A stretch of 64,000 nt of DNA from Candidatus Krumholzibacteriia bacterium (GTDB lineage: Bacteria; Krumholzibacteriota; Krumholzibacteriia; LZORAL124-64-63): assembly GCA_046484865.1 (NCBI GenBank), contig JAWOID010000071.1:14953-78952 (forward strand). The letters are read 5' to 3'. The stretch's first letter is position 1. Each line of letters opens with the position of its first letter. Below, one piece after another: positions 4,519-30,997 of this stretch. The position numbers and the translations under genes were made by a program. The notes under the pieces were generated by a model. The model did not search any database. It saw only the letters and a program-made list of their open reading frames with translations, and had not been told where the DNA came from.

Positions 4519-7113
4519 TCACCGCATCAGCGTGACCTTGCGGTGGTCCACCCCGCCCGGCCCCTCCAGGCGCCAGATGTAGACACCGGCCGCCACGCGC
4601 CGGCCACCGCCGTCCAGGCCGTCCCATGACCGGGTGACCGGCCCCGGCGGCATCTCGTCGCGCATCAGATCACGCACCAGGCGCCCGCGGACATCGAACA
4701 GGCCGAGCCGCACCTGGCCCGCGGCGGGCACGACGAAGGCCACCACCTGCGCGCCGCTGTCGCCGGGCAGGAACGGGTTGGGCGCCGCGGCCGTGATGCG
4801 CGGCGCTGCGCCGGGAACCTCCGGGCCGACGGGCTCCACCTCGCCGAAGGCCACGATCTCCACGTCGTCGATGTTCCAGCCGCAGTAGCGACCGAAGGAG
4901 TCGGTGGGCCCCATGGTCCAGCGGACGAACACGCGCGGCTGATCGTCGGCCACCGCCGAGATGTCCAGGCTCACCGGAACCCACGTGCCGTCGGTGATCT
5001 GCACCGTGTTCTGCCAGATCGGGGTGAAGCGGATGCCGTCGACACTCACGGCCACCGCGGCCTGGTCGGGGGGCAAGCCCACGCCCAGCCAGCGCTGGAA
5101 GCGCAGCTGCACACCCGAGAGTCCGCGGCAATTCAGGGCCGTGGTGGTGAGGTGGCGCGCCGGCATGCCGTTGTCGTAGTCGCCGGCCAGGTTGAATCCC
5201 AGCACATTCTCTCCCGTGTGCCCGCTCGTGGGATCGGGAGGACCGAACTCGCCGCCCTCGCCCTGGGGAACCCCGAACTCCCAGCCCGGGTCGCGGAGCC
5301 ACCCCGGATCGGTCTCGAGATCGAAGACATGCTCAGCCTCCAGCGGCCCCACCTGCAGTTCCACCGCTCGGGACGTGTCGCCGGTACCGTCGGTGAGGTT
5401 CACGAAGCGCAGGCGCCCCCGGTAGAGCCCCGGCGGCTGGTCGGCGGCGCCGGCAGCGAGCGCCACCGTGACCGTGACCGTCTCGCCGGGCGGGACCACC
5501 CCGCTGCCGCCAGTCACCGTCAACCACTCCACATCGGCGGTGACGCTGTACTGCAGCAGCACCGAGGTGCCGTTGCTGACCGTGTACTCGAAGCTCGCGG
5601 GGGTGAAGGGTCCGCCGGGATCGCCGGCTGCGATCAGGACCCCGCCCGGCTGCACCGACAGGCCCATCGGGTCCAACAGGTCGAGCGTGAACACGCCCAG
5701 GTCCAGCGGGTCGAGCCAGTCGCGCAGACGCGCGCCCGGTGCACCGCCTCCATCCCAGGAGACCGACAGGCGGCCGTACCAGTCCGGAAGGACGTTGCCG
5801 CAGGCGGCGTATCCGCCGTGGAGCTGCCCGACCACGCGGCCGTTCTGGTCGAAGAGCGGCGAGCCGCTGGAACCGCGCTCGGTGGTGCCGATCTCCCAGT
5901 TCCCCACCCGGATGTGGCTGCCATCGCCGGGCGAGAGGTCGTCCAGGTAGGAGGTGGTGGTCGCGGGGTCGTGATCGAAGCTGATGGCCTTCTCGTCCGT
6001 GTTCGGATGGTGGATGGCCACGGACGATGACGGATCCTGAGCGCTCCGATCCCAGCCGGCGTAGCTGACGGCGAACTCGGGCCGCGGCGGATCGTCGAGT
6101 TCCACCAGCGTGAAGTCCGTCCGGAGGCTTCGCGCCCGCAGGTCGGCACCGGTCTGGTACTGGCCCAGGCTGCCGGGCGCGACGCCGCCGCACTCGGCGC
6201 GCTCGAAGTTCCAGTACACCACCATGCTCGGCGCGGTCACCTCGTCGATGGCACAGTGATAGGCCGTCAGGAAGTACGGCGTGGCGTCCTGGGCCGTGTT
6301 GTTCACCAGGAATCCCGTGCACACCGTCGAGCCGCCGCGGGAGTACACGGCCACGCTGCGGATGTGAGTCCGCCAGGGGTCACCTTCGGGACATGCCACG
6401 TCGACGTTGCAGGCACCCGACTTGTCCCCGTCGACCTCCCCGCCGCCGCGAGCGGCCCTGGTGAAGAAACGGTAGCCGCGGCCGACGGACGCCAGCTCCA
6501 GCTCCACGAGATGCGCCACGCCGGCGTCCACCTCCAGCTCCACCACCAGTTCGTCGCCCAGGACGACCGGAGTCCACAGCTCGCCGTGGGCCTCGTTGTC
6601 GTCCGCGGTGTAGGCCTGGACGATCCCCTCGCCGTCGGCCGGGTAGATCCTCAGCACCGCACCCCAGGGCAGGTGGAAGCGCCGGAACCCCAGGTTCAGA
6701 CTTTCGCTGCCCGGACAGCCGACCCGCAACCTCCACAGCCGACGGTCGGGTCCGAGCCACTCCCAGGCGCCCTGATCGGCGGGACTGATGGCCACGGTCT
6801 CGGGGACCGCGAAGCGGTAGGGTTCGCCGGCGGCCTCGCGCCGCGCATCCTCGGCGGCGAGTGCCGCCCGGTCGGGAAGCGCCAGCGCCCGCTGCGGCAC
6901 CTGGCCCAGCGGCTGAACCGTCCACCGGTCCGCCGCCGGCCGGGCCAGGTCTGCAGGCAGTCCGGGCGCGGCGGAGGTCCGCCGCTCGACGCCCGCGCGG
7001 TCGCGGGCGATCGGCTGGCCCTGGGCGACGTCGCAGAGGGCCGGCGCTCCCGCCAGGAGCGCCAGCAGAAACAGGACGACTGGGCGGCGCCGGGCCGGCC
7101 ACTCGGGTCGCAT
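4519..7113 (-). CDS. Secreted S1-family serine endopeptidase (lysyl-endopeptidase-like) with beta-sandwich module and FlgD-Ig/T9SS-type C-terminal tail
   Basis: ATG 6 nt after GAGAGGA. Signal peptide RRRPVVLFLLALLAGAPALC. Catalytic motifs CTGFLVNNTAQDATPYFLTAYHC (His) and GSSGSPLFDQNGRVVGQLHGG (Ser). C-terminal module ends CGWNIDDVEIVAF. Tail: PNPFLP...LGLFDVRGRLV...WDGLDGGG...GVYIWRL...KVTLMR. Confidence 0.85.
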   Translation of the reverse strand: MRPEWPARRRPVVLFLLALLAGAPALCDVAQGQPIARDRAGVERRTSAAPGLPADLARPAADRWTVQPLGQVPQRALALPDRAALAAEDARREAAGEPYRFAVPETVAISPADQGAWEWLGPDRRLWRLRVGCPGSESLNLGFRRFHLPWGAVLRIYPADGEGIVQAYTADDNEAHGELWTPVVLGDELVVELEVDAGVAHLVELELASVGRGYRFFTRAARGGGEVDGDKSGACNVDVACPEGDPWRTHIRSVAVYSRGGSTVCTGFLVNNTAQDATPYFLTAYHCAIDEVTAPSMVVYWNFERAECGGVAPGSLGQYQTGADLRARSLRTDFTLVELDDPPRPEFAVSYAGWDRSAQDPSSSVAIHHPNTDEKAISFDHDPATTTSYLDDLSPGDGSHIRVGNWEIGTTERGSSGSPLFDQNGRVVGQLHGGYAACGNVLPDWYGRLSVSWDGGGAPGARLRDWLDPLDLGVFTLDLLDPMGLSVQPGGVLIAAGDPGGPFTPASFEYTVSNGTSVLLQYSVTADVEWLTVTGGSGVVPPGETVTVTVALAAGAADQPPGLYRGRLRFVNLTDGTGDTSRAVELQVGPLEAEHVFDLETDPGWLRDPGWEFGVPQGEGGEFGPPDPTSGHTGENVLGFNLAGDYDNGMPARHLTTTALNCRGLSGVQLRFQRWLGVGLPPDQAAVAVSVDGIRFTPIWQNTVQITDGTWVPVSLDISAVADDQPRVFVRWTMGPTDSFGRYCGWNIDDVEIVAFGEVEPVGPEVPGAAPRITAAAPNPFLPGDSGAQVVAFVVPAAGQVRLGLFDVRGRLVRDLMRDEMPPGPVTRSWDGLDGGGRRVAAGVYIWRLEGPGGVDHRKVTLMR

Positions 7114-7227
7114 GGGGGATCCTCTCGCAGCGGGGTGGCGTTGCGGGTCCGCTTCAAGGATAAGCCGCAGCGGCCCCGGAGGACAACCCGAACCCCGGAC
7201 CCGGCCCCGCGGCGACGCGCCGGCAGG

Positions 7228-8232
7228 CTAAACGTGATTGCGCAGCATCAGTTCCTTCGGCGAGGGCCGCAGGTAGACCTGATCGAGGACGTAGCCCACG
7301 TCGTGCAACTCGAGATAATGATGGATCAGGGTGAGCGGCACGATCAGCGGGACGAGCTGGGCGCGGTAGTCCTCCACCACGGCGAGGATCTGCCGGCGCT
7401 CGGCAGCGTCGAGGTGCTCGCGCAGGTAGCCCAGGATGTGCTGCATGACGTTGACGTTCTTCGGCACCGTGGCATGCTGGGCCAGGGCGGACATGTAGAG
7501 TTCGCTGTACAGACGCCGGAACTCGGCCGGCTCGTGGTCCTTGACGGCCGCCACGAGACGCCCGAGTTCCTGGTAATGCTCGGGGCTGTGGGCGAGCAGC
7601 AGGTACTTCTCGGCGGCGTGGAACGCCACCACCTCGCCGCGCCGGAAGCGGCCGCGAAAGAGCGCCTGCAGGCGATGATAGGCGAAGACCCGCACCACGA
7701 AGTTCTCGCGCAGGGCGGGGTCGTTCAGGCGGCCCTCCTCCTCCACCGGCAAGTGCGGCATCATCTCCAGCAGCGCCGCCGCGAAGAGCCCGCGCCCCTG
7801 CTTCAGGGGCATCCCTTCGGCGGAGTAGACCTTCACGCGCTCCATGCCGCAACTCGGCGAGCGGTTCTTCAGGATGTACCCGCTCAGCTCGAGACGCTGC
7901 AACTGTTCCACGCGGCGGCGGCTGTATGCTTCCATGCGCTCGGTCCAGTCGTCTCCCGAACCGGTGCCGACCATGCGGACGCGCGAGGGGTCGTGCGGGT
8001 CGCCCACCAGCCTGACCGCCTCCCGCGGCACTCCCATCCCCACCTCGAGCTCGGGACAGACCGGCACGAACTCGAAGTAGCGCCCGAGCAGGTCGGTCAC
8101 GTAATGGTCGAGCTTGTGGCCGCCGTTGTAGCGCACCTCCCGCCCCAGCAGGCACGTGCTCACACCCACCCGCAGGGGCAGCGGAGGCTCCGGCGCGGCC
8201 CGGGGATCTCGTCGCTCTCCTGTCTCCGTCAT
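7228..8232 (-). CDS. ybgA: DUF523 (TudS-like) + DUF1722 (YbgA-like) fusion protein
   Basis: ATG at 8232 overlaps the photolyase stop as ATGA (8229-8232). N-terminal VSTCLLGREVRYNGGHK is the DUF523 signature. The C-terminal helical half (HYLELHDVGYVLDQVYLRP) resembles YbgA/DUF1722. Confidence 0.8.
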   Translation of the reverse strand: MTETGERRDPRAAPEPPLPLRVGVSTCLLGREVRYNGGHKLDHYVTDLLGRYFEFVPVCPELEVGMGVPREAVRLVGDPHDPSRVRMVGTGSGDDWTERMEAYSRRRVEQLQRLELSGYILKNRSPSCGMERVKVYSAEGMPLKQGRGLFAAALLEMMPHLPVEEEGRLNDPALRENFVVRVFAYHRLQALFRGRFRRGEVVAFHAAEKYLLLAHSPEHYQELGRLVAAVKDHEPAEFRRLYSELYMSALAQHATVPKNVNVMQHILGYLREHLDAAERRQILAVVEDYRAQLVPLIVPLTLIHHYLELHDVGYVLDQVYLRPSPKELMLRNHV

Positions 8233-9608
8233 CCGTCCGCCTCCCGCGCCAGCTCCTGTACCCGCTCGATGTAACGGTCCACGCGGAACTTGCGCCTGCA
8301 GCCGTTCGCGCTCATCGCCCGCACCTTCCCGAACACGGGCCGCTCGGGCCAGGGCCGATCGTGCAGCCCACCGACGCTCCACGCGCAGCCCACGTATCCA
8401 TTCGGGTCGCGCCCATCCAACTCGTACCGGTCGTTGAGGGTGATGGCCGCCTGCAGCGCCGCCTCGGGATCAGGCGACCAGGCCAGGATCATCTTGGCCC
8501 AGTACATCCGCAAGTACCCGTGCATCTTGCCACGAACCAGCAGCTCCTGCTGCGCCGCGTTCCAGAGCGGGTCGTGCGTGGCGGCCGCCTCCAGAGAGCC
8601 CAGATCGTAGACGTGTTCGCGCGGATCGTCGGCGTGCTCGTCCAGGGTACGCCGGCCCCACTCCGGCAGCGCCTCCCATGTATCGTAACGCGGCTCGTGA
8701 TGGCAGAAGTTGTCGGCCAGTTCACGCCGCACGATCAGCTCTTCCAGGAAGGCGTCGCGGTCGGCGGCCGGCGCCGCGGCCCGCTGCGCCTCCCACGCCG
8801 CCCGGCGCGGTGCGAGCTGTCCGAAGCGGAGATAGGGTGAGAGATCCGACTGCCCCTGCCACGCGGCATCGTTCCGGCCCCGGTCGTAACCCTCGAGGCG
8901 CTCGCGGAGGAACGCGGCCAGGGCCGCCCCGGCAGGTCCCTCTCCCGGTGGGAAGACGTCGTGGTCCCGGCCATCCGCCGCCGCCCGGGAGACGCTGGAC
9001 ACCGCGCCAGGATCGGGTGCGGCCGCCGCAGCCGGCCACGGGGCAGGCGCCGGGAGCGGCGCTCCGACCGGCTCCGTGAGGAACGCGGGCAGAAGCCGGC
9101 GCAGCTTCGGTCGCAGGGTGCGGGCGGCGTATTCTCGCCGGTCCGAAGCCCGCCAGACCGGCACCACGTTGTGCGCGTCGACCTCCTCGCAGAGGACGTC
9201 CAGCCGGTGCGCAGCGGCCTCGCTCCAGCGGCGGATCGGCCGCAAGGGCGAGTAGTCCGCCACCACGGCGCCCGCGCCCACCCGCGCCGCCAGGGCGGGC
9301 ACCTCCGCGCCCGGATCGCCCGTGAGCAGGAAGAACGGGATGCCCTGGCCCGCGAGCTCGCGGGCGCATCCGGCGAGCCCGTTCAGCAGGAAGCGGTCGT
9401 GCCGCCGCGAGACGCCCAGGCAGTCGGGGCCCAGGGCGAAGCAGACCCCCAGCGGCGCGCCCTGCTCCGCGGCCAGCTCCCAGGCGCGGCGCAGGGCGTC
9501 GTTGTCACGCGCCCGCTGATCGCGTCGCATCCAGTACAGGACCGGCCCCGGCCCCGGCGCCGCCGCGTTCAGCGGTCGCACCCGGTCCGGATGGACGGGA
9601 CTGGGCAT
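8229..9608 (-). CDS. phr: Deoxyribodipyrimidine photolyase, class II
   Basis: ATG at 9608 lies 5 nt after GAGGAG; the alternative ATG at 9623 lacks an SD. VLYWMRRDQRARDNDAL and KMHGYLRMYWAKMILAWS...NGYVGCAWSVGGLHDRPWPERPVFGKVR are class II CPD-photolyase hallmarks. Confidence 0.9.
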   Translation of the reverse strand: MPSPVHPDRVRPLNAAAPGPGPVLYWMRRDQRARDNDALRRAWELAAEQGAPLGVCFALGPDCLGVSRRHDRFLLNGLAGCARELAGQGIPFFLLTGDPGAEVPALAARVGAGAVVADYSPLRPIRRWSEAAAHRLDVLCEEVDAHNVVPVWRASDRREYAARTLRPKLRRLLPAFLTEPVGAPLPAPAPWPAAAAAPDPGAVSSVSRAAADGRDHDVFPPGEGPAGAALAAFLRERLEGYDRGRNDAAWQGQSDLSPYLRFGQLAPRRAAWEAQRAAAPAADRDAFLEELIVRRELADNFCHHEPRYDTWEALPEWGRRTLDEHADDPREHVYDLGSLEAAATHDPLWNAAQQELLVRGKMHGYLRMYWAKMILAWSPDPEAALQAAITLNDRYELDGRDPNGYVGCAWSVGGLHDRPWPERPVFGKVRAMSANGCRRKFRVDRYIERVQELAREADG

Positions 9609-9699
9609 GCCGACTCCTCGCATGGTCGGGGTCCGGGTGACCCTTCGAGGTCAACACGGAAGGGTAACTGCGACCGCCGCAGGTGGCCATTGCTGCGGG

Positions 9700-14235
<4,536 letters not shown>

Positions 14236-14362: not shown

Positions 14363-15991
<1,629 letters not shown>

Positions 15992-16129
15992 GGTCGCCGT
16001 CCTCACGGAACTGCGGAGGTGCGTGGGGGAACCGTTCGAGTCGCGAATCTATCATCCGCCGGCTCGGTTGACCAGCCGGGCCGGCCGATGCGCAGCTCCG
16101 TCGCGGCGGGGCGTCAGCGCCGCCCGGGT

Positions 16130-18304: not shown

Positions 18305-18391
18305 GCCCGGTTTCCCACCTGACAGTGCGTCTCCCGCCAGCTATGGTGGCAACCGTCCTGGGCACCCAACCCGTCCGCGAGGAGAGCCGTC

Positions 18392-19696
18392 ATGAACCAG
18401 CATCTGCATCGCGTAGCGCTGATCGGCGCGGTACTCGTCGCCGCGTCCGGCGGGGTCGCCGCCGCCGGAGACGAACCGCGACCGGAGCGCCGTGACCAGC
18501 CCGTCTACCGGCCGGCCAACCGCTACCCGGTCCTCGAGGAGATCGAGGCGGCGCGGGCCACGCAGCAGGCCATCCGCGACTCGCTGAAGGCCGCCGCCGA
18601 CGCCCGGCACGCCGCCGAGTCCGAGCGCCGCGAGGACGAGGCGCGCTCGCTGCGGGTGGACCTCTCCGCGTTCGATCTGCCGCCGTCCCCGGAGATCTTC
18701 CCGACCGCCTGGCACACCCCGCCCCTGCCGCAGTACTTCACGGGCACCTGCTGGGCCTTCTGCTCGGTTTCGCTGCTGGAATCCGAGATCCAGCGCCGAC
18801 ACGGCCGCGAGGTGAAGCTGTCGGAGATGTGGATCGTCTACCACGAGTACCTCGAGAAATCCCGCCGCTTCCTGCGCGAGTACGGCCACAGCGCGGTGGC
18901 CGAGGGGAGCCAGGATCACGGCACGCTGGAGGTCATGGAGAAGTACGGCCTGGTGCCCGCCGAGGCGTATCGCGGCGTCCTGCAGGAGGACGGCCGATTC
19001 GACCACGAGCCGCTGCTCCAGGAGCTGAAGGGCTATCTCGTCTGGGTGCGCGACAGCGGCACCTGGGACGAGCCGACCAATCTCGCCGCCGTGCGGGCGA
19101 TCCTCGACCGGCACCTGGGATCGCCGCCCGGCCGCTTCGCCTGGCGCGGCCGCGAGTACGAACCCGAGAGCTTTCGGGACGAGGTCGTCGGCCTCGACGC
19201 CGACGAGTACGTGAGCTGCGTGTCGCGGCTGGATGAGCCGTTCGGCGCCTTCGTCCTGCTGGACGTTCCCGACAACTGGCGGCGCAGATCCGACTACCTC
19301 AACCTGCCTCTCGACGCCTGGTACGGCGCGTTGCGCGGAGCGGTGACGGACGGTTACACGGTGACGCTGGGCGGCGACGTCTCCGAGCCCGGGCTCGACG
19401 GTCACCACGACGTCGCCGTGATCCCTTCCTTCGACATCCCGGCCGCCGCCATCGACCAGGGCGCGCGCGAGTTCCGCATCGCCACCCGCCAGACCACCGA
19501 CGATCACGGCGTGCACGCGGTGGGCTACGTGCGCCACGGCGGGGCCGACTGGTTCCTGATCAAGGACTCGAATCGCTCCAGCCGGCTGGGTCGCTTCGAG
19601 GGCTACTACTTCTACCACGGCGACTACGTCAAGCTGAAGACGCTCGCCTTCCTGGTGCACCGGGACCGGCTGCGGGACCTGCTGCCGCAGGAATGA
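18392..19696 (+). CDS. Secreted papain-like cysteine peptidase (C1 family, aminopeptidase C/bleomycin hydrolase-like)
   Basis: ATG after GAGGAGAG. Signal peptide HRVALIGAVLVAASGGVAAAG. Active-site Cys in FTGTCWAFCSV. His in DDHGVHAVGYV...DWFLIKDSN. Confidence 0.8.
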   Translation: MNQHLHRVALIGAVLVAASGGVAAAGDEPRPERRDQPVYRPANRYPVLEEIEAARATQQAIRDSLKAAADARHAAESERREDEARSLRVDLSAFDLPPSPEIFPTAWHTPPLPQYFTGTCWAFCSVSLLESEIQRRHGREVKLSEMWIVYHEYLEKSRRFLREYGHSAVAEGSQDHGTLEVMEKYGLVPAEAYRGVLQEDGRFDHEPLLQELKGYLVWVRDSGTWDEPTNLAAVRAILDRHLGSPPGRFAWRGREYEPESFRDEVVGLDADEYVSCVSRLDEPFGAFVLLDVPDNWRRRSDYLNLPLDAWYGALRGAVTDGYTVTLGGDVSEPGLDGHHDVAVIPSFDIPAAAIDQGAREFRIATRQTTDDHGVHAVGYVRHGGADWFLIKDSNRSSRLGRFEGYYFYHGDYVKLKTLAFLVHRDRLRDLLPQE

Positions 19697-19833
19697 CGGG
19701 AATGAGTCGATCCGGGGCGGCGGATCCGGTGCTTCGACCCGAGATTGTCCGGTGACCGCCAGGTGGTACGCTCGACCGAGCGCTCCGCTCGCCTGGGCGC
19801 GCCGGTCGGCGTGACTGCAACCGAGGACCAGCC

Positions 19834-20847
19834 ATGACGTATCTCCAGGAACCGCCCCCGCACGAGATCGTCCACGCTCGCCGTCAGGAGCGCGCACCGA
19901 CCATGGGCCAGAGAGCCTTGCTGCAGATGAGCGTGACGCTGGGCCTGCTGGCCGCCGCGGTCGCTGCCCTGCTCGTGTGGAAGGGCCGCGTCGTGATGGG
20001 GGTCTACCTCGCCGACCCGTTCGCCATGGTGCTGAACGGCCTCATCGTGGCGCTCTTCGTGCTGGGGCTCGTGCGACTCTTCCAGGGTCTGCGGCACTAT
20101 GCGCGGGAGGAGCGGGAAGTGAACCGCTTCCTGAGGATGCGCAGCGACGGCATGCCAGGCGCCGCGGCCTTCGACGACCTCGCCGACGACTCGATCATGG
20201 CTCGCCGCTACTTCACGATCCGGGGACTCTACGAGCGAGGCATCCCCATCGATCACGGAGCGATCTCGGCGATCATGGTGGCGGAGGAGTCGCTCTACCA
20301 GTCATTCCCCCGCTTCGTGAACAACGTGCTCATCCTCACCGGCGTGTTCGGCACGGTGACCTCGTTGATCATCGCCCTCGTGGGCGCCAGCGACGTGATC
20401 CAGACCGCCGTGCCCGGCGAAGGCATGGGGCTGATGCTGCTGGGCATGAACACGGCGCTCACCACCACGGCCACCGCCATCGTCTGCTTCTTCTTCTTCA
20501 CCTACTTCTACCAGAAGCTGGGCGACGTCCAGAGCTACCTCTTCAGCCGGCTCGAGCGTGCGACCTTGCTCTACCTGGTTCCCGAGTTCGCCTTCGACAC
20601 CGACGCCGTCAACCACGAGACCCGCCGCCTGGTCGAGGAGGTGCGCGGACTCACCCAGGACCTGCGCACCGGGCTCGGCGATCTCCAGCGCAGCACCGCC
20701 GCCCTGGCGATCCCGCAGCACGAGCGGCTGAAGGTGTGGTCCGGCCTGGCGGCCGGCCAGGAGGAGCAGGTCCGGCGGCTGGAAGGGCTCGGCTCCCAGC
20801 TCGAGGAGCTGCACCGCGTCCTGGTGGAGGGGTTCCGCCTGCGCTGA
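19834..20847 (+). CDS. MotA/TolQ/ExbB-family ion-channel subunit with MotA-like 4-TM topology and C-terminal coiled-coil tail
   Basis: ATG 7 nt after GAGGA. Four predicted TM helices with a ~75-aa loop between TM2 and TM3. Channel motifs LILTGVFGTVTSLIIAL and GMNTALTTTATAIV. The last ~110 aa are heptad-rich. Confidence 0.65.
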   Translation: MTYLQEPPPHEIVHARRQERAPTMGQRALLQMSVTLGLLAAAVAALLVWKGRVVMGVYLADPFAMVLNGLIVALFVLGLVRLFQGLRHYAREEREVNRFLRMRSDGMPGAAAFDDLADDSIMARRYFTIRGLYERGIPIDHGAISAIMVAEESLYQSFPRFVNNVLILTGVFGTVTSLIIALVGASDVIQTAVPGEGMGLMLLGMNTALTTTATAIVCFFFFTYFYQKLGDVQSYLFSRLERATLLYLVPEFAFDTDAVNHETRRLVEEVRGLTQDLRTGLGDLQRSTAALAIPQHERLKVWSGLAAGQEEQVRRLEGLGSQLEELHRVLVEGFRLR

Positions 20848-20868
20848 CCGCCGCCCGGAGGTGACCCC

Positions 20869-21828
20869 GTGCACGTGTTCCGCTCCTTCCCCGACCTTCA
20901 CCCCGGCGATCGCGGCGCTCGGTCGGGTTCCACGCTGTGGCCGTCGTTCGCCGACATCATGACGGTGATCCTGATGGTGTTCATGCTCACCATGGTGGCG
21001 GTGATCATCAAGAACGCGAGCCTGCTCGAGTCGGTCCGTCTGAGCCACGCCCGGCAGACCGAGGCGGAGGCCGCGCTCCAGGTGCAACTGGGCCGCTTGG
21101 CCGATCTGACGGCCGCCAACGTGGACCTCGAGGAACAGCTCCGCGACCGGGAGACGCAGATCATCGTGCTGACCGACGAACAGACCCGCCTGCAGGACCT
21201 GCTCGACGCCAGGATGCTGGTGATCGAGCGCCTGGAGGAGGAGCGCGCCGATCTGCAGGAGTCGGTGCGGGTCATCCGCATGCGCGTGGCCGAACAGGAG
21301 GAGGAACTGGCGGCGGCTCAGGGCCGCATCACCGAGGTCACGGCCGCGGCCGAGGCGCGCCGGGACGAGTTGCGACGGGAACTGGAGGCGCTCCTGCGGC
21401 AGTTGAACGAGAAGGACGCCTTCCTGATCACGCTGCAGGACGAGAAGAGCGACCTGCAGTCGCAGCTCGACCAGCAGCGGCAGGATTTCGCGTCGATGGA
21501 GGACGAGTATCTGCGCTTGCTGCGGCCCGCCCGCAGCCCCCACGGCAAGCAGGTGGCCACGGTGCAGTACTACCGGCTGGGGCCGGACTATCACATCCTC
21601 TTCAAGGACGTGGGCGCGACGGAGGCCGAGGAGGTGAGCCGGGACGAGTTGCACCGGCGTCTCGGCGCGCTGAAGGAGCGCCTGGGCGACGACCTCTACG
21701 TGAAGATCGTGATTCCCGACGCCAGCGGACTCTCGTTCAACGAGGCCTGGCGTTTCACCGACGACATCCTGTCGCGCTACGATTACTACCACGCCGAGAG
21801 TCCGCCGGAGCAGGCGCGAGGGCGGTGA
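20869..21828 (+). CDS. MotB/ExbD-like single-TM subunit with invariant Asp, long coiled coil and small C-terminal domain (no clear OmpA domain)
   Basis: GTG after GGAGGTG, 21 nt downstream of the MotA-like gene. LWPSFADIMTVILMVFMLTMV resembles the MotB/ZorB TM segment, with the Asp codon at 20953-20955. Residues ~55-215 are E/Q/R/L-rich heptads. C-terminal LYVKIVIPDASGLSFNEAWRFTDDIL. Confidence 0.5.
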   Translation: MHVFRSFPDLHPGDRGARSGSTLWPSFADIMTVILMVFMLTMVAVIIKNASLLESVRLSHARQTEAEAALQVQLGRLADLTAANVDLEEQLRDRETQIIVLTDEQTRLQDLLDARMLVIERLEEERADLQESVRVIRMRVAEQEEELAAAQGRITEVTAAAEARRDELRRELEALLRQLNEKDAFLITLQDEKSDLQSQLDQQRQDFASMEDEYLRLLRPARSPHGKQVATVQYYRLGPDYHILFKDVGATEAEEVSRDELHRRLGALKERLGDDLYVKIVIPDASGLSFNEAWRFTDDILSRYDYYHAESPPEQARGR

Positions 21829-26883: not shown

Positions 26884-27780
26884 ATGACCCGCGACAAGGC
26901 CGACCACGGACTGCCCACCGGGGACGATGCGCAGTTCCCGGACACGGACCGGGCCGATACGCGTCGTGAGCTCGACGCCGATCCGGCGCCCTTCAGCGGC
27001 GGACAGGACGCCTTCTACCGCGAGGCGATGGAGTTGCTCGAGAGCGCCGGGGTGCCGTACCTGGTCGGCGGTGCGTATGCCCTGCGCACCTACACCGGGA
27101 TCGAGCGGGACACCAAGGATTTCGACGTCTTCATCCTGCGCGAGGACGTGGATCGCGCACTCGCCACCCTCGCATCCTCCGGCATGACCGCCACCATCCC
27201 CTTTCCGCACTGGCTGGCGAAGGCGTCGCGCGGCGAGGAATCGCTCGACCTCATCTTCAGCAGCGGCAACGGCGTGGCGGGAGTGGACGAGTCGTGGTTC
27301 TCCGAGGCTGCGGTCCACGAGGTGTTCGGACGCCCGGTGAAAGTCTGCCCCATCGAGGAGATCATCTGGTCGAAGGCCTTCATCATGGAACGCGAGCGCT
27401 TCGACGGGGCGGACGTCCTGCACCTGCTTCATCACCGCGCCCACGAGATCCGCTGGGATCACCTGCTCGAGCGCTTCGGCCCGAACTGGCGCGTGCTGCT
27501 GGCGCACCTGGTGCTGTTCGGCTTCGCCTATCCCAACGATCGCCAGCGCATTCCCCACGGCGTGGTGGACGGACTGGTCGATCGGCTGCGGCGGCAGGAG
27601 GCCCGCCGGCCGCCGACGGGTCGCGTCTGCCGCGGCACCTTGCTCAGCCGCGCGCAGTACCTGGTGGACATCGTCCGCTGGGGCTACAACGACGCCCGGC
27701 TGGCTCCGCACGGCTCGCTCACCGAGGAGGACGTCGAACGCTGGACCGCCCCCCTGGAAGACGGCGAGATCCCCCGCTGA
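26884..27780 (+). CDS. Pol-beta-superfamily nucleotidyltransferase-like protein (uncharacterised family)
   Basis: ATG at 26884 lies 6 nt after GGGAGAG; the alternative is ATG at 26824. VPYLVGGAYALRTYTGIERDTKDFDVFI has the G[GS]-x(n)-DxD minimal NTase pattern. Divergent from the phosphoesterase gene. Confidence 0.55.
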   Translation: MTRDKADHGLPTGDDAQFPDTDRADTRRELDADPAPFSGGQDAFYREAMELLESAGVPYLVGGAYALRTYTGIERDTKDFDVFILREDVDRALATLASSGMTATIPFPHWLAKASRGEESLDLIFSSGNGVAGVDESWFSEAAVHEVFGRPVKVCPIEEIIWSKAFIMERERFDGADVLHLLHHRAHEIRWDHLLERFGPNWRVLLAHLVLFGFAYPNDRQRIPHGVVDGLVDRLRRQEARRPPTGRVCRGTLLSRAQYLVDIVRWGYNDARLAPHGSLTEEDVERWTAPLEDGEIPR

Positions 27781-27789
27781 ACGTCGCGG

Positions 27790-27815
27790 GACGGCCGGCT
27801 TGCCATTCGGCCGTC
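27790..27815 (+). terminator. Weak hairpin (8-bp stem) after the nucleotidyltransferase-like gene
   Basis: GACGGCCG (27790-27797) pairs with CGGCCGTC (27808-27815), with a 10-nt loop and no T-tract. Confidence 0.3.
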
Positions 27816-27868
27816 GCTGCCGGCGCGGGTGTGGGCACGATCGGGGAGAACACGACGAGGCCGCGCGC

Positions 27869-30800
27869 ATGAGATCCCGACCGCTGCCGTCGACGCCACT
27901 CCCGGCGATGCCGCTCGCGGCGATGCTGTTCACGGCGGCGCTGCTCACGGCAGCGCTGCTCGCCGCGGCGATGCCGCCGGCCGCCGCGCAGGCGCAGGGC
28001 TTCGGCCGCAACAAGGTCCAGTACGAGCGCTTCGACTTCCAGGTCGTCGAGACCGAACACTTCCAGATCTACCACTACCTGGACGACCCCGCGGTGGTGG
28101 ACGACCACGCGCGCATGGCCGAGCGCTGGTACGCGCGCCTGCGCAGGGTGTTCGGGTCGGACCTGGAGCCCGGACAGCCGCTCGTCCTCTACGCGAACCA
28201 CGCCGACTTCCAGCAGACCAACGTGGTCAACGTGCTGCTCAACCAGGGTACAGGCGGGGTGACCGAGGGCCTCAAGAACCGCATCGTCCTGCCCCTGACT
28301 CCTCTTTACGAGGAGAACGACCACGTCATCGGCCACGAACTGGTGCACGCGTTCCAGTTCACCATCATGAACGAGCTGGGCCGGCGCTACGGAGCCCAGC
28401 GGCGTCTGCCGCTGTGGTTCGTGGAGGGCATGGCCGAGTACCTGAGCGTCGGCGGCAGCGGCGCCCTGACCGCGATGTGGCTGCGCGATGCGGCTCTGCG
28501 CGACGAGATCCCCACCATCGAGGACCTCGGCCATCCGCGCTACTTCCCCTACCGCTGGGGCCACGCCCTCTGGGCCTGGCTCGCCAGCCACTGGGGGGAT
28601 GAATCCGTGGACCTGCTCATGCGCCGGACCGTGCAACTGGGGTTCGACGCTGCGCTCGAGCAGGTGCTGGGTCTCACGCTGGACGACGCCGGCGAGCGGT
28701 TCCAGGAGGACGTCCGCCGCACGGCCGCCGCCCAGCTCACTGATCGCATCCCGCCGCAGGAGACCGGCGAGCCGCTCGCGCTGGAAGGTCTCGGCTACAA
28801 CTTCGCGCCGGCCCTGAGCCCGGACGGCCGCACCATGGCCCTGCTCTCGCAGCAGGAGATCCACTCGATCGACCTGTATCTCGTGGACGCCGTCACCGGC
28901 GAGGTGCAGGAGAAGCTCGCCGACTCGCGCACCGACGAACACTTCGATGCGTTGCGGTTCATGAATTCTGCGGGCGCCTGGTCGCCGGACGGCCGCCGGT
29001 TCGCCTTCGTCGTCTTCGCCGAGGGAGACAACCGGGTGGCCCTGCTCGACGTGGCGAGCCGGCAGGTGGAGCGCACCGTGGAACTGGACGGCGTGGACGC
29101 CATCACCGATCTGGCCTGGTCGCCGGACGGCACCACCCTTGCCGTGGCCGGCACGGCGCGCGGGCGCGGCGACCTGTTCCTGTACCGCCTCGACGACGGT
29201 TCGCTGGAGCAGCTCACCGACGACGCCCACGGCGAGATCATGCCCGCCTGGTCGCCCGACGGTCGCATGCTGGCGTTCGTCACCGACCGGGGCGCCGACA
29301 CCGACCTGCAGGAGCTGCGTTTCGGTAGCCTCAAGATCGGTCTCCTGGACTTCCGTACCGGGCGGATCGCCCTGGTGGCGCTGGACGGGCGCACGCGGCA
29401 CATCAGCCCGCAGTTCTCGCCGGACGGACACAGTTTGTACTTCATCGGCGCGCCCGACGGGTTCAGCGACGTGTTCCGGTACGATCTCGGCGACAGCACC
29501 TTCCACCGGGTCACGCGCGTGGCCACCGGGGTGACCGGGCTGACCGGGAACTCGCCCGCGCTCTCGGTCGCCCGGGAGACCGGCAGACTGGCGTTCACGG
29601 TCTTCCACGACACCGAGTACCTGGTACGCACCTTGCCGGCGGAGGCCGCGCAAGGCGAGCCGCTGCCGCCCGCCCCCGCCGCGGCCCTGGAGGCGGCCGA
29701 CGTCGTGCGTCCGGGAGCACGGCTGCCCCCCCTGGACGGCGAGCCCGGTCTGGTGGACGCCTACCTGTCCGAACCCCTGGAGGGCCTGCCCCGCACGGCG
29801 GACTACCCGCAGGAGGAGTACGATCCGGACATCAGCCTCGTCCACGTGGGGCAATCGGGCGTGGGCGTGTCGGTGGACCGGTTCGGAACCAACCTCGGCG
29901 GCGGCGCCACCTTCCTGTTCAGCGACATGCTGGGCAACCGGATCCTGAGCCTCACCGCCATGCTCCAGGGCAGCTTCGACAACGCCGGCGCCGAGGCCGT
30001 GTACCAGAACCTCGGCGGCCGCTGGAACTGGGGTGTGGCGGCCGGCCACATCCCGTACCGGTCGGCGTTTCTCTCGGTGCGGCGCGGTACCGAGGAGGTG
30101 GACGGCGAGGTGCGGGACACCCTCATCCAGGAGTTGATCATCGAACACACCGCGGTGGACCGGGCGGCGGGGGTGGTCGAGTACCCGCTGTCGGTGAACC
30201 GGCGCTGGGAACTGGCCGCCGGCTACAGCCGCATCAGCTACCACTACGAGAGCCAGGTGGTGGAGTATCTCGACGACGTGCTCATCCGGGCGGAGGAGCG
30301 CGACCTGCCGGATCCGGCCGGACTGGACCTCTTCGAGTCGTCGCTGGCGTACGTGGGCGACTACTCGTTCTTCGGCTTCACCAGCCCCGTCACCGGCAAG
30401 CGCTTCCGCCTGGAGGTCTCGCCCACCTTCGGCACGCTCGACTACGCCACGGTGCTGGCCGACTACCGGCACTACTTCCAGCTGGCGCCGGCGTTGACGC
30501 TCGCGATGCGCGGACTGCACTACGGTCGCTATCTGGGCGACGCGGAGGACCGCCGCCTCTCGAGCCTCTACGTGGGGCAGCCCACGCTGGTGCGCGGCTA
30601 CGAGCTGGAGGACATCAGGCTGGTGGAGTGCACCGAGGTGGGGCCGGACCGCCGCTGCGCGGAAGTGGACCGGCTCATCGGCTCGCGCCTCGGCGTGCTG
30701 AACCTGGAGCTGCGGGTGCCGGTGCTCGGGACCGAGGCGTATGGTCTGGTGGACTTCCCCTGGCTGCCCACCGAGCTGGCGCTGTTCCTCGACGGCGGCG

Positions 30801-30997
30801 TGGCCTGGACGGAGGCCGACGAACCCGTGTTCGAGCTGGTGCGGGAGTCGACCCAGCGGGTGCCGGTCTTCAGCGCCGGCGTGGCGGCGCGGATGAACCT
30901 CTTCGGGGTCCTGGTCCTGCAGACGTACCTGGCCCTCCCCTTCCAGCGCCCGCACGAGGACAGCACGTTCGGATTCGTGCTGGCCCCCGGCTGGTGA
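27869..30997 (+). CDS. Outer-membrane fusion protein: signal peptide + MA-clan HExxH peptidase-like domain + TolB/PD40 beta-propeller + C-terminal Omp85/D15-type beta-barrel
   Basis: ATG at 27869. Signal LAAMLFTAALLTAALLAAAMPPAAAQA. HELVH at 28334-28348, followed by WFVEGMAEY. At least 5 SPDG PD40 repeats. C-terminal region has alternating hydrophobic beta-strands (LNLELRVPV, VFSAGVAARMNLFG) and ends GFVLAPGW with a terminal aromatic residue. Confidence 0.75.
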   Translation: MRSRPLPSTPLPAMPLAAMLFTAALLTAALLAAAMPPAAAQAQGFGRNKVQYERFDFQVVETEHFQIYHYLDDPAVVDDHARMAERWYARLRRVFGSDLEPGQPLVLYANHADFQQTNVVNVLLNQGTGGVTEGLKNRIVLPLTPLYEENDHVIGHELVHAFQFTIMNELGRRYGAQRRLPLWFVEGMAEYLSVGGSGALTAMWLRDAALRDEIPTIEDLGHPRYFPYRWGHALWAWLASHWGDESVDLLMRRTVQLGFDAALEQVLGLTLDDAGERFQEDVRRTAAAQLTDRIPPQETGEPLALEGLGYNFAPALSPDGRTMALLSQQEIHSIDLYLVDAVTGEVQEKLADSRTDEHFDALRFMNSAGAWSPDGRRFAFVVFAEGDNRVALLDVASRQVERTVELDGVDAITDLAWSPDGTTLAVAGTARGRGDLFLYRLDDGSLEQLTDDAHGEIMPAWSPDGRMLAFVTDRGADTDLQELRFGSLKIGLLDFRTGRIALVALDGRTRHISPQFSPDGHSLYFIGAPDGFSDVFRYDLGDSTFHRVTRVATGVTGLTGNSPALSVARETGRLAFTVFHDTEYLVRTLPAEAAQGEPLPPAPAAALEAADVVRPGARLPPLDGEPGLVDAYLSEPLEGLPRTADYPQEEYDPDISLVHVGQSGVGVSVDRFGTNLGGGATFLFSDMLGNRILSLTAMLQGSFDNAGAEAVYQNLGGRWNWGVAAGHIPYRSAFLSVRRGTEEVDGEVRDTLIQELIIEHTAVDRAAGVVEYPLSVNRRWELAAGYSRISYHYESQVVEYLDDVLIRAEERDLPDPAGLDLFESSLAYVGDYSFFGFTSPVTGKRFRLEVSPTFGTLDYATVLADYRHYFQLAPALTLAMRGLHYGRYLGDAEDRRLSSLYVGQPTLVRGYELEDIRLVECTEVGPDRRCAEVDRLIGSRLGVLNLELRVPVLGTEAYGLVDFPWLPTELALFLDGGVAWTEADEPVFELVRESTQRVPVFSAGVAARMNLFGVLVLQTYLALPFQRPHEDSTFGFVLAPGW

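Follow-up and report, generated by a model that had tools for sequence, protein, structure and literature searches.

We here analysed two adjacent genes, termed gene A and gene B, that lie in a stretch of 64,000 nt (the window in the following) on contig JAWOID010000071.1 of a Candidatus Krumholzibacteriia bacterium (assembly GCA_046484865.1), and for which an orphan, undescribed ion-driven motor with an extended B subunit had been suggested from the DNA letters (the original prediction). All features of the pair are given on the + strand. Gene A (19834-20847) is an open reading frame (ORF) of 337 aa encoding a pentamer-type motor subunit similar to MotA, ExbB, TolQ and ZorA, while gene B (20869-21828, 319 aa) encodes an axle-type subunit similar to MotB, ExbD, TolR and ZorB, which carries a coiled-coil stalk and an orphan head domain. 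Gene A stops with TGA at 20845-20847 and gene B starts with GTG at 20869, leaving a spacer of 21 nt between the co-directional genes. Each is preceded by its own ribosome-binding site, a Shine-Dalgarno-like GAGGA at 19823..19827, 6 nt 5' of the ATG of gene A, and a Shine-Dalgarno GGAGGT at 20857..20862, 6 nt 5' of the GTG of gene B, both recognised by reading the sequence, so that the gene arrangement described originally was found as stated. Promoter and terminator scans around the pair returned no sites. Homologue alignments back both start codons, with all B homologues opening with MHxF; the first 22 residues of A (19834-19899) form an N-terminal extension, MTYLQEPPPHEIVHARRQERAPT, that is shared only with its few nearest relatives, and most members of the gene A family begin at the equivalent of Met23. 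Since 276 full-length homologues of A and 139 of B were retrieved at 45-73% identity, with E-values down to 1e-147, the two genes are real and conserved, far from what chance would produce.

The AlphaFold2 (AF2) model of gene A, calculated from the family alignment with a predicted local distance difference test score (pLDDT) of 79 and a predicted template-modelling score (pTM) of 0.63, is all-helical and consists of four membrane helices followed by a helical C-terminal tail. In a Foldseek search against the PDB, all of the 50 best matches were ExbB, TolQ or ZorA chains (probability 0.99-1.00, target-normalised TM-score 0.41-0.67, best E 2.7e-4), and no MotA, PomA, GldL or PorL chain was found among these 50. 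The MotA-like topology assigned to A therefore stands with respect to its four transmembrane (TM) helices, but fold and profile lie nearer to ExbB, TolQ and ZorA than to MotA. The Pfam family PF01618 (MotA_ExbB) aligns to residues 165-233 with 21.1 bits against a cutoff of 22.9, and it matches 26 of 36 gene A family members at E<=0.01. TM1 (residues 26-48), a short periplasmic loop and TM2 (62-84) are encoded at 19909..20085, as seen from hydrophobic segments and from AF2 helices at 24-49 and 62-104, and the segment preceding TM1 has a net charge of about +2. The cytoplasmic loop (85-160; 20086..20313) is helical in the model, sits between TM2 and TM3 like the cytoplasmic domain of ExbB and TolQ, and contains the invariant residues E93, R125, H141 and E152.

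The highest mean column conservation of gene A (0.88) is reached in the channel core formed by TM3 and TM4 (161-233; 20314..20532). Here the motifs GVFGTV (G170-V175) and ALTTT (A208-T212) instantiate the two channel-family signatures noted originally, G-x-x-G-T-V and A-L-x-T-T, and their residues G170, G173, T174 and A208-T212 are invariant across 36 homologues; further invariant positions of the core are G204, N206 and T207. The codons of the two invariant threonines T174 and T212 lie at 20353-20355 and 20467-20469. When A was aligned to E. coli TolQ by hhalign, T174 paired with T145 and T212 with T178, the two TolQ residues that constitute a polar ring in the pore beside the essential Asp23 of TolR (PMC12215075). 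The kink proline of TolQ, P138, paired with Ile167 of A, whose TM3 is a continuous helix in the AF2 model. Following the core, the cytoplasmic tail (234-337; 20533..20844) is covered by AF2 helices at 196-253, 256-290 and 299-333 and ends in G-F-R, with G333, F334 and R335 invariant. Its hydrophobic period of 3.55 residues and its helicity agree with the heptad-rich tail that had been read from the sequence. Foldseek alignments to ZorA comprised 225-296 columns (255-296 in four of the five ZorA chains) compared with about 227 for ExbB.

Gene B, modelled by AF2 with a pLDDT of 81.5, begins with a cytoplasmic N-terminal peptide (1-23; 20869..20937) of the pattern MHxF...DLR, in which M1, H2, F4, D9, L10 and R11 are nearly invariant. 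It continues into the transpore helix (24-49; 20938..21015), which with a conservation of 0.95 is the most conserved segment of B and reads WPSF(T/A)DIMTVILMVFMLTM, nearly invariant across homologues. Asp29, the axle aspartate of the original prediction, is encoded by GAC at 20953-20955 and is invariant in the homologue alignment. The profile of B matches the same region of ZorB chains, namely 8vvn_B with E 1.4e-4, 8vvi_A and 8qyd_F, of which 8vvn and 8vvi are structures of the Zorya complex ZorAB (PMC11890865), and the PADLOC models of ZorB match the TM region with E 1.4e-5, restricted to residues 14-99 of B. Comparison by hhalign gave E 6e-4 with E. coli ExbD and 1.7e-3 with TolR, pairing D29 with D23 of TolR. 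The best NCBIfam match was PRK09039, a 'peptidoglycan-binding protein' family (E 1.7e-6), which covers the TM helix and coiled coil at residues 16-199; its score of 28 bits compares with a family cutoff of 305, and coiled-coil composition may largely account for the match.

Directly behind the transpore helix lies the putatively periplasmic coiled-coil stalk (50-217; 21016..21519), assigned from the AF2 model and the hydrophobic period, with about 24 heptads and a length of about 25 nm (calculated at 1.485 Å per residue). In the AF2 model, residues 27-217 form one uninterrupted helix, for which the mean pLDDT of 10-residue blocks is 88-97 over residues 31-180. Neither a plug nor a linker follows the TM helix, the heptad register sets in from residue 50 onward, and the MotB plug family PF13677 has no match in B. 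The alignment-averaged hydrophobicity of residues 50-217 has its top period at 3.50, matched by 5 of 2000 shuffles, and the a/d register, which shifts once near residues 160-170, can be traced through about 24 heptads; the coiled coil of about 160 residues recognised before was thus recovered from model and periodicity alike. A core heptad position is occupied by Asn84 (21118-21120), and 66% of the aligned homologues carry Asn at this site, which by analogy resembles the buried Asn that sets parallel, in-register dimers in GCN4-type coiled coils.

The length of the stalk turned out to be a conserved property within lineages and a stepwise one between them. In 95 of 115 close homologues, exactly 190 residues separate Asp29 from the RPARS motif of the head, while among family representatives the spacer between Asp and head ranges from 124 to 422 residues and in Thiotrichaceae up to 530. 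Taken modulo 7, 73 of 112 spacers fall into one class and 18 into the class shifted from it by a stutter of 4 residues (chi-square p 5e-51 overall and 3e-10 with each distinct length counted once), and an independent set of spacers displayed the same pattern (36 and 13 of 60). The stalk is free of proline even in versions of about 400 residues, and the long stalks retain the period of 3.5. As spacer lengths are quantised in heptads, the stalk is best described as a continuous, register-preserving coiled coil that evolves by whole heptads. The commonest spacers of about 190-222 residues correspond to about 25-30 nm, and the Gram-negative periplasm is about 25-30 nm wide, so typical stalk lengths fit an element that spans the periplasm. 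The filamentous Thiotrichaceae carry a long form of B with spacers of 350-530 residues, which when straight would measure about 50-76 nm and exceed a typical periplasm, one example being a B protein of 648 aa at locus L208.

The C-terminal head (218-308, about 85 residues; 21520..21792) is an alpha/beta domain with the order b-b-b-a-b-a in the AF2 model and a block-mean pLDDT of 82-88. Its motifs are RPARS, GK, IPDxSGLSYNEAW and YDYY, and its invariant residues are P220, A221, R222, S223, K227, S286, G287, L288, E292, A293, W294, F296, T297, D305, Y306 and Y307. When 1.84 billion representative proteins were scanned with a hidden Markov model (HMM), 373 clusters (50% identity) proved to contain the head, of which 346 matched at E<=1e-10. 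The 150 listed matches all have it at the very C-terminal end of proteins of 111-538 aa, the short ones being fragments; the TM helix with its Asp motif is present in 112 of these 150 proteins, and the remainder are mostly N-terminal fragments, together with two that carry Asn. No structural relative emerged from the searches: the Foldseek comparison of the B model with the PDB gave nothing significant among 50 listed matches (best E 0.026), the head-only profile found no solved structure among PDB sequences (best E 0.4), and no Pfam family was detected among 26 head-only homologues. The best Foldseek matches, at a non-significant E of 0.03-0.1, were chains of uS11, integrase cores and RuvX, which we take to share an RNase-H-like topology, and these head matches may be distorted by the long helix of the B model.

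Two assignments of the head were considered and dropped. The original prediction had described the domain as loosely OmpA-like, a resemblance that we could not reproduce by Pfam, PDB-sequence or Foldseek comparison: PF00691 (OmpA) matches neither B nor any of the 38 full-length or 26 head-only homologues, and OmpA-family chains were absent from the 50 listed Foldseek matches and from the PDB profile matches. An ExbD/TolR-like head, suggested by the LYVKIVIPD-SGLSYNEAW motif and by the succession of secondary structure elements, was likewise unsupported. Comparing head and TolR by hhalign picked the expected segment, but with E 0.56 and a probability of 0.1%; the values for ExbD (E 0.52) and MotB (E about 0.5) were similar. 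Pfam ExbD (PF02472) matched the head in two of 26 homologues with E>=0.12, and no TolR or ExbD chain occurred among the 50 listed Foldseek matches of the B model.

To map the family, one genome per species was scanned with motifs from A, from B and from the long form of B. The A motif yielded 44 loci, all from metagenome-assembled genomes, in Krumholzibacteriia, Desulfobacterales, Nitrospinota, Nitrospirae/Thermodesulfovibrionia and a few Gammaproteobacteria. The B motif gave at least 490 loci (species representatives), in which sulfur-oxidising Gammaproteobacteria (Ca. Thiodiazotropha, Sedimenticola, Ectothiorhodospiraceae), clam symbionts among them, Zetaproteobacteria and Desulfuromonadales are well represented. 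The long-form scan added Thiotrichaceae (Cocleimonas, Leucothrix, Thiothrix, Thiolinea), among them the cultured Cocleimonas flava DSM 24830, whose A protein, WP_165874584.1, has no annotation beyond "MotA/TolQ/ExbB proton channel family protein" and whose long-form B gene lies at 6001-7737 of locus L210. The B subunit of the family is annotated only as hypothetical protein. The host lineages are diderm, as far as is known. A and B are adjacent in 172 of 176 loci from several phyla (46 of 48 with B after A, and 56 of 57 and 70 of 71 with A before B), three of the four non-adjacent loci are visibly contig ends, and in other loci the two genes often overlap by 4 nt.

The conserved unit ends with these two genes. 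Clustering of flanking ORFs in 44 loci plus the window, and in these 44 combined with 57 gammaproteobacterial loci, returned no conserved third gene beyond close relatives; this clustering covered L005-L048 with the window and L145-L204, and the Thiotrichaceae (L205-L283) were screened for A, B and Slp only. In the clustered loci and in the flanks of individual relatives, no TonB/TolA, pal/tolB, zorC/D/E/F/G or gld/por genes are linked to the pair. Both the closest relative, at 70% identity, and other relatives have neighbours that differ from those in the window. The surroundings of the pair consist of housekeeping genes (tsaB, an lpxH-like gene and others) whose synteny holds at the level of clades and which change between lineages. 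Some loci carry two tandem genes for Slp-family outer-membrane lipoproteins (PF03843, E 8e-51 and 2e-32) about 90-300 nt 3' of B on the same strand, as at 9149-10215 of locus L159 from Ca. Thiodiazotropha endolucinida. The linkage is real yet limited to the Thiodiazotropha/Sedimenticolaceae clade (16 of 183 loci), so that Slp was dropped as a general third partner; the Slp pair may represent a lineage-specific outer-membrane partner. Small upstream genes in two Krumholzibacteria-type loci were also discarded as partners, being mutually unrelated.

Within the window, whose G+C content is about 70%, the pair is flanked, as stated originally, by a C1-family peptidase gene upstream of A on the same strand and by a convergent meaB (MeaB) downstream of B. 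The claim that partner genes are missing from the 64 kb holds for TolQ/TolR/TolA-like genes, none of which was found, and for flagellar genes, which are absent from the window and from the flanks of the relatives examined; paralogues of A or B are not present in the window either. About 5.5 kb downstream of gene B, the stop-to-stop ORF 27341-30994 (+) resembles the E. coli TolB beta-propeller in repeated BLASTP matches (E 2e-13, 2e-11 and 2e-8), has no TolQ, TolR or TolA gene nearby, and probably encodes a PD40-repeat protein. Antisense ORFs of 496 and 518 aa at 20302-21792 (-) and 18341-19897 (-) overlie A, B and the peptidase gene and are high-G+C artefacts; similar antisense ORFs cluster across 41 loci because they are mirror images of conserved genes. 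The CysS gene (14363-16006, -) has its best species-representative match in the myxobacterium Nannocystis at 60% identity, all others reaching about 45%, and was uninformative for placing the window. The relatives of A and B and the proteins with T9SS-type C-terminal domains on related contigs (L286, L001) point instead to a lineage of the Fibrobacterota-Chlorobiota-Bacteroidota (FCB) type.

We propose, with a probability of roughly 55%, that A and B form a self-contained motor of the 5:2 superfamily in the inner membrane, driven by ions (most likely protons), that belongs to a distinct family and uses its axle as the periplasmic output. The fold, the invariant Asp and Thr residues, the adjacency of A and B and the absence of partner genes support the orphan, undescribed motor of the original prediction. 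Profile searches did not place the pair inside the canonical MotAB, ExbBD/TolQR or Zorya families; its B TM helix matches ZorB, ExbD and TolR and the adjacency of A and B is conserved, so that neither of the two outcomes named originally as refuting the motor was observed. Homology suggests a ring of five A subunits around two transpore helices of B, in which protonation and deprotonation of Asp29 of B against the ring of Thr174 and Thr212 of A would drive relative rotation of A5 and B2. The transpore helices would run on without a break as a parallel coiled-coil dimer about 25 nm long that ends in the conserved, novel head, and the stalk would deliver the work of the motor to an envelope target engaged by the head, whether level with the peptidoglycan, past it or at the outer membrane. 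Because B has neither a flexible linker nor an anchoring domain and no TonB- or TolA-like gene is linked to the pair, the B2 stalk itself, rather than serving as an anchor, would be the part that carries the output. In a tentative extension of this proposal, which we consider possible and hold with clearly less confidence than the proposal itself, the family would comprise minimal trans-envelope machines of two proteins, with torsionally rigid coiled-coil drive shafts of about 18-76 nm in whole heptads, spun or cranked by protons, with the head on a target in the outer membrane, peptidoglycan or sheath, and would make up a sixth functional class. In sulfur-cycling bacteria that live in sediments, and in their filamentous relatives, the head of such a drive shaft may serve to sense or remodel the envelope.

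Several observations weigh against the proposed motor with its axle as output. Similarity to canonical motors is weak, with Pfam just under its cutoff and hhalign at E 1e-2 to 1e-4 against single sequences, so that membership in the superfamily rests mainly on the fold and the key residues. The charges flanking the B TM helix are ambiguous under the positive-inside rule, and the topology of B, with a periplasmic stalk, therefore rests on homology. The head has neither a recognisable binding function nor a signature of peptidoglycan binding. The Thiotrichaceae stalks of 400-530 residues (60-76 nm if straight) are longer than a simple crossing of the periplasm at right angles to the membranes would allow. 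In two members, P0249 (WPGFTNVV) and P0353 (FWSSFSNVM), Asn replaces the transpore Asp, and such B variants may be non-conducting or differently gated. Finally, on present evidence a stalk that turns as a shaft is indistinguishable from a B dimer that is anchored by its head while A5 turns.

This last point leads to a polarity like that of Zorya, in which the head would fix the B2 stator to the peptidoglycan or outer membrane and the A pentamer with its tail would be the rotating output, acting on a cytoplasmic target whose gene lies elsewhere in the genome, or signalling to it. B is the anchored subunit in MotAB, TolQR and ZorAB, the B TM helix scores best against ZorB, ZorA is among the fold matches of A and gives the longest alignments, and the conserved, heptad-periodic tail of A with its invariant GFR end would suit such an output. 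However, this tail has about 100 residues compared with several hundred in ZorA, a cytoplasmic partner gene linked to the pair was not found, the head carries no peptidoglycan-binding signature, and a peptidoglycan anchor would not need a rigid, length-conserved stalk of 25-76 nm. Owing to the short A tail, the missing linked cytoplasmic partner and the long, length-conserved stalk, we rank this arrangement below the axle-output motor and regard it as unlikely, though worth keeping in mind. The stalk could also act as a ruler in an envelope spacer, tether or mechanosensor, for which the A-B core would provide an anchor or a gated ion leak. The tight retention of stalk length within lineages, the steps of whole heptads between lineages that a ruler predicts, the two members with Asn in place of Asp and the absence of identifiable partner genes are compatible with this idea, which we nevertheless judge improbable: it is the motor core, not the stalk, that is most conserved (0.95 for the B TM helix and 0.88 for TM3-TM4 of A), and a passive tether would have no need for a pentameric channel subunit. 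Conservation of the core together with the invariant Asp and Thr residues points to selection on ion coupling.

The two functions considered in the original prediction fared less well than its assignment as a motor. As a minimal relative of Zorya lacking effectors of the ZorC/D type, the pair would be a module for defence, against phages or otherwise, and ZorB chains are indeed its nearest matches among solved sequences, with PADLOC ZorB models matching the B N-terminus at E 1e-5. These ZorB matches are, however, confined to the TM helix, and the PADLOC model of ZorA gave no match (E 0.17). Nearby genes include neither effectors nor defence genes; the weakness of the defence role follows from the housekeeping surroundings with clade-level synteny and from the high conservation across phyla (45-70% identity), unlike that of typical defence genes, and we consider such a role very unlikely. 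Least probable of all appears an energiser of the T9SS (type 9 secretion system) or of the anchoring of its cargo. The contigs of the nearest relatives (L286, L001) do encode proteins with T9SS-type C-terminal domains, but most members are, by their record titles, Gammaproteobacteria (Thiotrichaceae, Sedimenticolaceae, Ca. Thiodiazotropha), Desulfobacterales, Nitrospinota and Zetaproteobacteria, and we know of no T9SS in carriers from these lineages, so that a general link of this kind can hardly be expected. Moreover, no gld/por genes are linked to the pair and GldL lies outside the top 50 fold matches of A.

The proposal of an axle-output motor is of interest since five ion-driven 5:2 motors with a named output are established, namely the flagellar stator, Ton, Tol, gliding/T9SS and Zorya, each of which revealed a new route for inner-membrane energy. 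With two genes and the axle as its periplasmic element, the A-B family would be the simplest trans-envelope version to date and thus an attractive minimal system for studying how force or rotation is passed along a coiled coil. The heptad-stepped lengths of the stalk offer a natural handle on how machines are matched to envelope dimensions, and with Cocleimonas flava DSM 24830 as a cultured host the question can be approached directly by experiment. The family is widespread, with at least 490 species representatives, and strongly conserved, yet its B subunit has been recorded only as a hypothetical protein. We found no description of the A-B family in the literature, the nearest concept being TPH-vWA. 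A survey of the superfamily places the non-flagellar relatives under "generic ion transporters", a group that is heterogeneous in structure and in which many members have no known function, and its main text does not mention a coiled coil (PMC12505986).

Compared with known systems, the pair is a member of the superfamily by fold, key residues and gene order that lacks the defining features of MotAB, ExbBD/TolQR, Zorya, GldLM and TPH-vWA alike. MotA-MotB and PomA-PomB share with it the four TM helices of A, a TM3 that (in the AF2 model of A) is continuous and lacks the kink proline, and an Asp near the cytoplasmic end of the B TM helix; unlike MotB and PomB, B has no plug, linker or OmpA-like domain, and flagellar genes are not nearby. 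The hhalign comparison with MotA/MotB was the weakest of the three canonical pairs, with the MotA alignment hitting the wrong region, and by these profile comparisons the pair appears marginally nearer to Exb/Tol than to Mot. ExbB-ExbD and TolQ-TolR indeed have the closest A fold, a pore Thr pair and an axle Asp that align with those found here, and the same arrangement of adjacent, co-directional genes with A before B. In contrast to ExbB and TolQ, A is extended by one more TM helix at its N-terminus and by a tail of about 100 residues at its C-terminus, and B lacks the periplasmic domain (PF02472) of ExbD and TolR, being itself the element that would cross the periplasm, with TonB/TolA unlinked. 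ZorA-ZorB gave the best profile matches of the B transpore helix, and ZorA also has a helical cytoplasmic tail after its last TM helix, but B is devoid of the OmpA-like peptidoglycan-binding domain, scores 15 bits with NCBIfam ZorB1 against a cutoff of 400, and is found in a housekeeping context, unlike a defence island, with zorC, zorD and zorE absent from the flanks.

The closest parallels for the proposed axle-output design come from systems in which the two-copy central subunit is itself the output. In GldM and PorM this subunit is a rigid dimeric periplasmic structure that reaches toward the outer membrane and is thought to be the rotating output, an architecture to which the B2 stalk would be analogous without homology: GldL, PorL, GldM or PorM chains were not among the 50 listed Foldseek matches of either the A or the B model, the periplasmic part of GldM is built from globular domains instead of a coiled coil, and gldK, gldN and sprA are unlinked here. 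In TPH-vWA, the transpore helix with its Asp is joined straight to an output domain and has only a tolQ-like gene as partner, without a separate tolR/exbD and without TonB/TolA (PMC12204202). B follows the same design principle of a transpore helix fused to its output, but this output is a coiled coil with a head of about 85 residues rather than a vWA domain, of which Pfam detected no match in B or in the family members scanned, and there is one B gene instead of heterologous pairs. In a role comparable to that of GldM or of TonB/TolA, the axle of B would thus accomplish in one protein what TonB and TolA do as separate proteins.

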